From Narcine bancroftii (Eukaryota): a DNA stretch of 64,000 nucleotides. The stretch covers positions 350,300,001 through 350,364,000 of the forward strand of contig NC_091471.1 in NCBI RefSeq assembly GCF_036971445.1, given 5' to 3'. Below the pieces are notes generated by a model. That model did not search any database. It was not told the DNA's origin and saw nothing but the letters and a program-made list of their open reading frames with translations. This document shows, piece after piece, positions 12,817-15,800 of the stretch (position 1 is its first letter; every line of letters starts with the position of its first letter). The translations under genes were made by a program, and so were the position numbers.

Positions 12817-15800
12817 CTGTTTAAATGCAAGATTACAAAATTAGCAATTAGGACCAGTCTGCCATAATACATCAGATTACTTATGAAATTAAATGTCAAA
12901 CAGCATCTCTCAATTGGCTGCTTCTGATTGAACGAGATAAACTAGCTTCCACTTTTAACCATTTCCAACAAACCAGTATCTGCATTCCATAAACATAGCT
13001 TTGTTAGATGGCCAAATTGCAATTTAATTTGGTCATGCAGCCATTCTCAGGATACGTACAATTTTATTACTGATATCTAATCCTCCAAGGCTTTTTCCAC
13101 TCAATTAATTTAATTGATCTTGTTTTCCCAATGGTTTGGCTTTTTTAAAAAAAATTCCACTAATACCCATTAACAATGCCTCCAAATCACACATTTTACT
13201 CAATTTTCTACACCTTACTTTTAAAATAGTTTTAAGTATTATACAACAAATGAAGGCCTGTAATAAAATCCAGTTCAACTAGATAAATTACAAAATGGTG
13301 CTTAATCTAAAGATAAAGATCCTGCCACATAATTACCTGAACCTCTGTCTTCTACCATCTGAATTAGCTTTGGATTGATAGCCTGATTTGCCTCACGAAG
13401 CACAGAGATAAGGTCATTTGCTTGCTTTATGTTGCCAGGAGTAAAGAACGTGTAAGCTGTGCCAGTTTTGGAACTGCGGGCAGTACGCCCAATGCGATGA
13501 ATATAGTCTTCAGAGGAGTTAGGGTAGTCATAATTGATGACAAATTTCACATCTTCAACATCTGTAAAGTGTTGCAGCGTTGCAAAAGCAAGTGCAAATT
13601 ATGCACACCACAACAGTCAGATCAAAAACAGAAGTTAGCAAATTAACAACCAGCTGTAGCATCATGACTGTAAAGCAAATGTTAAAACAACCCTTAGTTC
13701 AAACCCTGAGGGAATACTACTGTGGGAAGAGAAAACAATGCACACTCCCCTTAAAAAAAGAACAACCCAAAATCAGAGAGATATTTTGAGATCTTACCAT
13801 TGGGAGTATGCATTCACTAGTCCATTCCCAAGTCAGCGAACTCCCCACATGTTATCAAGTGACATCCGGATGCTTCTATACAGTTGGGGCCACTTTGTAC
13901 ATTGTTGCCTCTTCATGTGCCATTCAGGACCTTAGAACAGTCAGGCAAGGTCCTTCCTACACATTCATGAGAAGCTCAGGGTTCAGGCCACACTGCATGT
14001 CTTGCCAAGACCAAAATAGACTACAATTAAACAAAACCCAATGGACATCTACATCCCCAGTACCTCCCTACTCAGATTTTCCTTTTGACATCTTGTCTAG
14101 GCAAGCACTTCTAAGAAGCCAGTGTTCACTTGAGAAAATGTCTCTGTTTGGCAGGTCCTGACATGACTAATGTGCACTAGGTGAGGGAGGAACTTCAGAA
14201 ATTATGAGGGCATTATGCTGCTAGATTCAGTGTAATCAATCTAATAGTGGGATTGACAATCTTTCACTAATTTGTGCCAGTACTCACCACCAATTTCTGG
14301 GAAGGATCTTACTGAGGTTAACTTGGCTCTCCATTTGTTAAAACATGAAGCAATGAACAAAGTTTAACAATAAGACACTTGTTCGGCACACCACTATTTT
14401 GGTAAACTAGCTTAAAAAAAATTTTAACTAACTAAAATGGGGAAAATGAAACCAGGGTATAATGCTGAGTGACCATAAAAGAACAAAGATTTAACGAGTG
14501 GTAAGTGCTTCACGTCATCCAGGGCGAGAACAGATTTTAGGGTGGCGGGTAAATGTTGACCATTCCGCCTTTTGAAGATTACTGGCACAATACTCTGTTC
14601 AGCATCTTTGTATTCGACTGGATAGCTGCCAGCCGATCACATCGATTTGTCCTCCTTCCCCCTCTCGAGTCCTCGAACTGTCATGCCTAGGCCCTGCCAC
14701 AAAGATTGCACCTTTACACAACTTAGAAAAAAAAAACGCAAAGACATGTTAAAGAAAGCAATGATATACTTTCTTTAAATCTTTGAATTAACTGGAGGAA
14801 GGTCACAAGTTGGATTGGCATTACTAACCTAAACCTCTGGAAGCAACATCTGTCGCAATAAGGATTGGTGCTTTGCCTGACCGAAACTCTATCAGAGAAT
14901 GAAAAGGAAAGTTAGATTATGCATATTCAAAAGTGCTTTAATATCAAGTTTATAAGCAAGAAAATGTCTTACCATTTAGAACCCAGTCACGCTCTGGTTG
15001 ACTCTTGTCACCATGAATGCACATTGCTGGCCACCTACAACAGGAAAGATGATACAATTGAAATAATTCAGAAATAGCAAGAAACTTGGCAATTGATTAA
15101 TCTTGCAATTTAATTTAAACCTAGCAGTTTAATTTCTCAGGCATTATTTCGTTACGATAGAAACTAGATGCTTGCCCACAAGTAATTTGTAGAATCTTTC
15201 ATCACACCATAAATGAATTGTACTTGCTATTCTGTTAGGTAGTCATAACAAGAAAACCATTCATCTGATGTTATAGGGCACAATACACCTAATGAATTAC
15301 TATTTCATTGTGCCCTTTAATGGTACATTTTCAAATCACCACAATGTTGAACACCACTGAGAAGATGTGCATGACATTTGAGCTGCTCAAGATATTTAAA
15401 AGCTATCCCATAAATGTGGTCCTAAATGAATACTTTGCTTCAGTGTTCACCAGAGAAAAGGACCTTAGTCAAGGTGAGGTCAGAAAGAATAAGGTTGTGT
15501 TGGACCAAGTTGAGATTAAAAGAAAGACCAAGTGCTAGATCTTAAAACATTAGGTTTGACAAGTCCCAGGAACAGAACAGAATATACTCCAAGTAATATG
15601 GAAAGGGAGGGGGGAAATTTCTGGAGGTTCAATCAGATAAATGTAAGGGGATACATTTTGGACGGTCAAACTCGAAGGCAGAGTACATAGTTAATTAACA
15701 GGTTGAAGAATAGTGAGTTGGGTTCCATTGATAGTTAAGGCAGCCAAAGGTCTGCTGGGCTTCATTAATTGGGGATTCATGATGCAATGTTGCAATTTAC

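Follow-up and report, generated by a model that had tools for sequence, protein, structure and literature searches.

The conserved intron of DBP2/p68 helicase genes is a known autoregulatory element. As far as the accessible portions of PMC4695336 and PMC1920232 go, this intron is poorly spliced and under negative control by the helicase in yeast (DBP2), S. pombe (dbp2) and human (p68/DDX5), and it agrees in position and size class with the intron studied here. How Dbp2/DDX5 limits itself through this conserved intron has been an open question since 1995, and in the same portions of the two accounts the cis element is attributed neither to an RNA fold nor to an internal acceptor. Citing earlier work, PMC4695336 (in excerpt) reports that retention of the yeast intron is relieved by a helicase-dead mutant, and depletion of DDX5 clears partially spliced DDX5 and DDX17 RNA (PMC1920232, in excerpt). 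Human auto- and cross-regulation is reported to need ATP binding, not hydrolysis or helicase activity, and is ascribed to nonsense-mediated decay (NMD) linked to UPF3 (PMC3763533, in excerpt).

The plant DEAD motif of DRH1/RH14 and RH46 (PMC12218528 and bioRxiv 10.64898/2026.01.23.701338, both in excerpt) resembles what we describe below in being a ~20-bp intronic helix at an alternative 3' splice site of two paralogous DDX5-related genes. Its alternative 3' splice site, retention and cassette outcomes all carry early stops and, as here, the motif was proposed to be a helicase sensor. For the DRH1 hairpin the mechanism was shown by disrupt/restore and helicase mutants (bioRxiv 10.64898/2026.01.23.701338, in excerpt); a mechanism of this kind has already been demonstrated in plants. 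Like the plant motif, the structure described here occurs in introns of two paralogous DEAD-box helicase genes. According to the same excerpts, the plant motif is a local hairpin with a 19-20-bp stem and a 3-5-nt loop, found only in land plants in the fourth intron of DRH1/RH46, with the AG inside the stem base. In contrast, the vertebrate-type DDX5 intron 11, which interrupts motif V, contains a predicted long-range multi-helix domain whose stem begins shortly after the likely AG, and its principal helix encloses ~510 nt in DDX5 and 2060 nt in DDX17. The likeness, which we compare by description and not by sequence, is probably convergent.

Other described structures share single aspects with this intron. 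At the concealed branch site of SF3B3, a splice signal for an unproductive event is masked by conserved pairing (PMC11162794, in excerpt), and a predicted hairpin described below, H0, has the same geometry. The structures of BRD2/BRD3 evolved independently, according to the title of PMC10789245 (in excerpt), whereas the arms in DDX5 and DDX17 are homologous. As far as these excerpts go, the input to the SF3B3 and BRD2/BRD3 poison exons is not the protein's own helicase activity, unlike our proposal for DDX5. The mir-3064 family (RF03840; PMC4807562, in excerpt) comprises a hairpin in the 3'-terminal part of DDX5 intron 11, and a hairpin below the family threshold lies there in the present intron as well. 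Neither the vertebrate helices nor their presence in both DDX5 and DDX17 were described in the literature that we searched, which included the main texts on long-range pairing catalogues. 'DDX5' is absent from the main texts of two catalogue papers (PMC8052449, PMC10573301), of which a full catalogue may contain the principal helix, and the accessible part of PMC6075143 held nothing relevant. The present analysis adds the arms shared by DDX5 and DDX17 and a likely acceptor, and the shared helices are a candidate cis element for the DBP2/p68 intron feedback.

The DNA analyzed here (the window) is a 64,000-nt stretch of Narcine bancroftii NC_091471.1, positions 350,300,001 to 350,364,000, whose minus strand encodes a DDX5/DDX17-type helicase (Table 1). 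Motif V is interrupted between a 60-nt and a 225-nt exon as in human, which identifies the conserved DBP2/p68 (DDX5) intron. Exon 11 has one other copy in the genome, at locus L003 on contig C27. Because the next exon at L003 scores nearer DDX17 than DDX5 (141 vs 126 bits), we call that locus DDX17 and the window gene DDX5, an assignment made from sequence similarity. The split between DDX5 and DDX17 dates to early vertebrate evolution. The DDX17 intron measures 6118 nt (L003 2486-8603), five times the DDX5 intron, and all of the added length falls between conserved blocks. An earlier contrast between a transposon-free intron 11 and large upstream introns full of transposable elements stands for intron 10, the upstream intron examined: intron 11 occurs once in the genome, whereas a high-copy repeat in intron 10 (window 15040-16780) shows 70-76% identity to many copies elsewhere. 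Head-to-head with the helicase gene lies an exon of DUF5745 (PF19016; window 43306-43416, plus strand). This family is presumably linked to CEP95 and to the DDX5 locus.

Table 1. Features of DDX5 intron 11 and its flanking exons, in transcript order; positions are those of the window.
Feature	Position	Strand	Remarks
DDX5 exon 11, 60 nt	14829..14888	-	Ends within helicase motif V (DVASRGL/D); length equals human exon chr17:64502009-64502069
Intron 11, 1267 nt	13562..14828	-	Single copy in genome; human counterpart 1236 nt
H0, local 12-bp hairpin, predicted to cover likely branch site of first internal acceptor	14749..14778	-	Pair probability 0.99
Poly-U tract with A1, the likely alternative acceptor (AG 14713-14712, exon start 14711)	14711..14735	-	Second AG at 14723-14722
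H1 5' arm (14699-14680) and extension H1b (14705-14700)	14680..14705	-	19-nt pattern exact only here and in DDX17 intron
H2 5' arm	14656..14664	-	DDX17 counterpart L003 2710-2716
H3 5' arm, 11 bp	14580..14590	-	Alone at chance level; without match in DDX17
Candidate internal donor (GT 14287-14286) and H3 3' arm (14282-14272)	14272..14291	-	Donor ranks 2 internally, by rough score
H2 3' arm	14183..14192	-	DDX17 counterpart L003 4737-4743
H1 3' arm (14167-14149) and extension H1b (14147-14142)	14142..14167	-	DDX17 counterpart L003 4757-4796
H4 5' arm	14095..14105	-	12-nt identity to DDX17; pair probability in DDX5 ensemble only 0.10
Conserved element including block D2 (13997-13990)	13990..14011	-	H4 arms 1.4 kb apart in DDX17, 85 nt here
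Hairpin over second alternative acceptor A2 (AG 13932-13931)	13926..13954	-	Pair probability 0.97
H5, 13-bp hairpin, best-scoring internal donor (GT 13797-13796) in loop	13737..13814	-	
H6, mir-3064-like terminal hairpin between distal branch-like motif and canonical acceptor	13561..13623	-	
DDX5 exon 12, 225 nt	13337..13561	-	Length equals human exon chr17:64500548-64500773; another intron follows

The original prediction was of three nested long-range helices, H1, H2 and H3, in this intron. All six arms are present where they had been placed, and the three helices occur together, nested, in both the minimum free energy (MFE) and the centroid fold. Mean pair probabilities are 0.96 for H1 and 0.91-0.95 for H3; H2 reaches 0.38 in a 7-bp register or 0.69 arm to arm. 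The extension H1b (0.84-0.89) lengthens H1 outward by 6 bp. H1 is the top long-range duplex of the intron, matched in 1 of 62 whole-intron dinucleotide shuffles, and the 731-nt region folds with z = -3.05, none of 20 shuffles being as stable. H3 alone is within chance, a perfect 11-bp stem arising in 249 of 1000 shuffles. It had been said to overlap the internal donor; the perfect 11-bp pairing exists, but it covers only donor positions +6 onward. A 10-nt stretch adjoining H3 (window 14506-14497, minus strand) is predicted, at a probability of 0.61, to pair along the full length of the internal donor (14291-14282), covering it far more than H3 does. We take this stretch to resemble the 5' end of U1 snRNA. 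Within the H1 5' arm, an 8-nt palindrome (window 14692-14685, minus strand) is identical in DDX17, and part of the arm is able to form 7 bp with the H4 5' arm instead.

Comparison with DDX17 revealed that the two introns share short colinear blocks and that these blocks are the helix arms. DDX17 keeps both arms of H1 and of H2, 2 kb apart, along with three to four further helices in unchanged order, and the spacing between H1 and H2 is 13-15 nt in both paralogs. Across 3.3 Gb of genome the exact H1 5'-arm pattern occurs at the two introns only; a copy with one mismatch, at G000:C15:207144027-207144045, is probably due to chance, and a metagenome scan with the pattern returned two loci, both chance matches without a partner arm. 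The best partner of the H1 5' arm is the homologous block in either intron, a strength reached by 2 of 200 shuffled targets in DDX5 and 0 of 40 in DDX17. When a 2.3-kb stretch of DDX17 is folded, H1b, H1 and H2 all appear in the MFE structure, with pair probabilities of 0.49-0.73.

The pairs themselves are largely kept. Between DDX5 and DDX17, 14 of the 18 H1 pairs are unchanged, two differ on one side, one shows a double change (G-C to A-U) and one terminal pair is broken, and H5 retains 13 of 13 pairs, one of them by a double change. Over H1, H2, H4 and H5 together (48 pairs), 39 are unchanged, five one-sided, two double and two broken. Simulated substitutions break as few of the 48 in 29, 209 and 1928 of 60000 runs at transition shares of 0.5, 0.67 and 0.9, respectively, and 373, 1301 and 5518 of 60000 for H1 and H2 alone; these counts, from two sequences, flatter the case because the helices and registers were picked with their conservation already seen. 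H1b pairs in both genes despite unrelated sequence. We regard the comparison, made between two paralogous sequences, as support for a conserved fold and not as proof, and consider it very probable that H1 and H2 form and are under selection. Because DDX17 keeps both helices with pair-keeping changes, the fold is better supported than a single intron could show.

It is scarcely credible that conservation acts on each arm as a sequence motif of its own, with the pairing merely incidental. Such a reading can point to the 39 of 48 invariant pairs, which are uninformative on structure, and to the modest significance within the single intron (1 of 62 shuffles for H1, chance level for H3), but the double changes in H1 and H5, the pairing of H1b with unrelated sequence and the fact that, in DDX5 as in DDX17, several of the colinear blocks each have a pairing partner among the others argue against it. 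Not every element is shared. The DDX17 intron contains no counterpart of H0, no counterpart of H3 and no GTRAG matching the donor at 14287; an 8-bp look-alike of H3 (L003 near 4419 and 4714) was rejected, being absent from the MFE structure and unsupported by the alignment. The A2 hairpin and the terminal hairpin do recur in DDX17, the former without its AG, and the structure is therefore not tied to splice sites alone. An Rfam scan of the DDX5 intron gave nothing for H1-H5, mir-3064 alone being strong among its four matches.

We propose that the acceptor governed by the fold differs from the one first predicted. The alternative acceptors had been assigned to two AGs inside H1, which rank 32 and 34 among the 81 AGs of the intron by a rough, home-made pyrimidine-tract score, lack a pyrimidine tract and are probably the wrong ones. 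By the same score, the AGs at 14722 and 14712 rank 1 and 8. The AG at 14712 (A1) aligns with a DDX17 AG that ranks 3 of 376 there, and the poly-U tract is kept in DDX17. A1 precedes the H1 core by 12 nt and H1b by 6 nt, and the distance to H1 is 11-12 nt across the paralogs. Its AG is predicted to pair into the H1 extension with a probability of 0.26, and in DDX17 the stem begins at exon position +3.

Human splicing data agree with this by offset. In an rMATS table (PMC12894984, supplementary file 10), which may be filtered, all eight DDX5 rows among those listed are acceptor variants of exon 12 with no internal donor or cassette, so that the intron is kept from the alternative acceptor onward. 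One human acceptor lies 118 nt past the intron 11 donor, against 117 nt for A1 here, and another lies 370 nt before the canonical acceptor, against 369 nt for A2 (PMC12894984). Five intronic human acceptors were compared with the AGs here by offset, not by aligned sequence, after two exon 12 acceptors had been dropped; three agree within 1 nt (one of them a single read), one within 3 nt, and one is unmatched; 19% of positions have an AG within 1 nt. The +118 acceptor has 14, 12 and 10 reads in one set and 19, 26 and 3 in another, compared with 564, 283 and 540, and 5289, 5094 and 4209, for the canonical acceptor; its use in human control cells is <1% of canonical reads. The supplements of PMC11632617 and PMC13078869 contained no event rows among those listed. 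Given the poly-U tract, the DDX17 alignment and the human offset, and since the AGs within H1 lack a tract, we conclude that the alternative acceptor is likely 14712/14711, at the foot of H1b-H1.

Every alternative frame stops, after 2, 37, 31 or 16 codons depending on the acceptor used. As had been noted, the 399-nt span ending at the internal donor contains a TGA after 16 codons, and retention of the whole intron gives an immediate TAG. Splicing at A1 with the rest of the intron retained leads to a stop after 37 codons. The early stop lies well upstream of a later junction, as in poison exons that couple alternative splicing to NMD, exon 12 ending at 13337 before a further intron; of the splice sites of such an exon, the paralog keeps the acceptor and not the donor. 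The likely product is A1-spliced RNA that keeps the remaining intron, and a 424-nt cassette (14711-14288) would be at most a minor route.

These observations bear on the first model, in which a 399-nt poison cassette (14686-14288) is enclosed by H1 and H3 and becomes included upon unwinding. Both of its AGs are fully paired in H1, its donor is predicted to be paired and is second among internal donors, a poison exon is annotated in the corresponding intron of human DDX17, and plant DRH1 also yields a cassette form. However, the likely acceptor lies upstream of H1, the caged AGs score poorly, and the donor and H3 are missing from the paralog. The human evidence is also contrary: none of the eight DDX5 rows listed in the possibly filtered table is internal, the annotated events of PMC10123112 include a poison exon of 231 nt at this intron for DDX17 and none for DDX5, and PMC5737842 describes the conserved DDX5 intron as lacking a poison cassette. 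We therefore consider the caged cassette very improbable. A search of DDX17 for a match to the human 231/236-nt poison exon gave a lone weak candidate with a poor donor (L003 6997-7231), which was rejected. Window 13930-13798 (minus strand) holds a candidate 133-nt poison exon, with the A2 acceptor in a hairpin, the donor in the H5 loop and a stop after 32 codons; of its two splice sites, human reads back the acceptor alone, by offset.

The mechanism that we propose instead centers on A1. H1b, H1 and H2 would form just past this acceptor. They would hold exon positions +7 to +32 in pairs (from +3 in DDX17) and loop out 0.5 kb (2.1 kb in DDX17), so that A1 would be hindered and the intron shortened. 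The H0 hairpin may in addition hide the likely A1 branch site, which we place from its motif and distance. When the helicase is plentiful, it would open or clamp H1, and A1 would be used or a stalled spliceosome would form there. The expected products are A1-spliced RNA keeping the rest of the intron and fully retained RNA, both of which would stop early, upstream of the exon 12-13 junction, and be subject to NMD or nuclear decay. We give an even chance to this account as a whole, in which the shared arms are predicted to form a multi-helix domain that likely keeps the weak A1 shut, and in which remodelling by DDX5/DDX17 would turn splicing unproductive. On its parts, H1 and H2 probably affect splicing of intron 11, and the case that DDX5/DDX17 activity is the input is evenly balanced. 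A shared fold would account for the lowering of DDX17 by DDX5. Sensing of the helicase by unwinding would fit yeast DBP2 and the plant DEAD motif, by analogy, and the published evidence is mixed.

The mechanism is not clean in silico. When the H1 3' arm is forced to stay unpaired, the poly-U tract (0.56 to 0.83) and the exon start (0.31 to 0.66) are freed, but neither the AG (0.43 to 0.33) nor the branch motif (0.14). That the A1 AG is not freed suits an alternative in which the helices enhance splicing by shortening a long intron whose donor is weak. Their opening by the helicase would then lower splicing and raise retention, and the internal acceptors would be of no consequence. The outcome known so far is retention, yeast RPL7B offers a precedent (PMC12311795, in excerpt), and the loops differ at least fourfold between the paralogs while the arms persist (0.5 vs 2.1 kb for H1; for H4 see Table 1). 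However, in each paralog A1 and its pyrimidine tract have stayed 11-12 nt ahead of H1, human cells use an acceptor at the A1 offset, and H1 does not bring the two ends of the intron together. We regard the enhancer reading as unlikely and favor the control of A1 by the shared helices.

A further possibility is that the fold binds other factors, aids retention or serves as a microRNA or nuclear RNA scaffold, and that feedback runs through NMD factors without any opening of the helices. ATP hydrolysis is dispensable in human feedback (PMC3763533, in excerpt), SR proteins and NXF1 bind the retained intron (PMC5737842), the S. pombe intron works by recruiting Mmi1 (PMC4695336, in excerpt), miR-3064 is made from DDX5 intron 11 without splicing, and the A2 hairpin is kept in DDX17 where its AG is lost. 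Against such a platform, yeast and plant feedback require a helicase-competent protein, DDX5 depletion alters partially spliced RNA (PMC1920232, in excerpt), and the DDX17 terminal hairpin persists yet has no Rfam match to mir-3064. We judge a platform without helicase-driven opening to be quite unlikely. H6 scores 47.9 bits against RF03840 (E 2.6e-08), below the gathering score of 76, and an Rfam scan of the DDX17 intron gave 0 matches, mir-3064 included, although the hairpin is there. The zone free of AGs at the terminal hairpin spans 90 nt, and 128 nt in DDX17; the mir-3064-like hairpin in this conserved zone may be mainly a splicing element.

To return to the control of A1, we take the structure to be real and conserved between the paralogs; its role as a sensor is plausible. 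More tentatively, and with less than even confidence, we suggest that a single inherited multi-helix sensor, predating the DDX5/DDX17 duplication, reads the helicase's own unwinding at an internal acceptor. It would be the missing cis element of the DBP2/p68 feedback and of the control of DDX17 by DDX5 and, together with the plant DEAD motif, would represent a recurring eukaryotic design. If this is true, one shared fold explains both auto- and cross-regulation and could be exploited with antisense reagents against two helicases linked to cancer. The paralog comparison yields the exact arms, an acceptor and the targets for disrupt/restore mutations, and the question is therefore directly testable in human cells, for which an exon 10-12 minigene design already exists.

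Additional pairings were found in both introns. A switch in which the H1 3' arm would pair with the A2 acceptor was considered and rejected, the probability of that pairing being 0.00. The 3' arm of the terminal hairpin (13580-13573) is complementary to block D2, with which it pairs at a probability of 0.17, and we consider it possible, from the model, that this pairing acts as a switch at the canonical acceptor. In DDX17 the corresponding pairing (L003 6276-6283 with 8581-8588) keeps 8 of 8 pairs, two of them through one-sided changes. The DDX17 intron also contains more long stems, for example L003 4219-4231 with 4704-4716 and 6891-6910 with 8539-8558.
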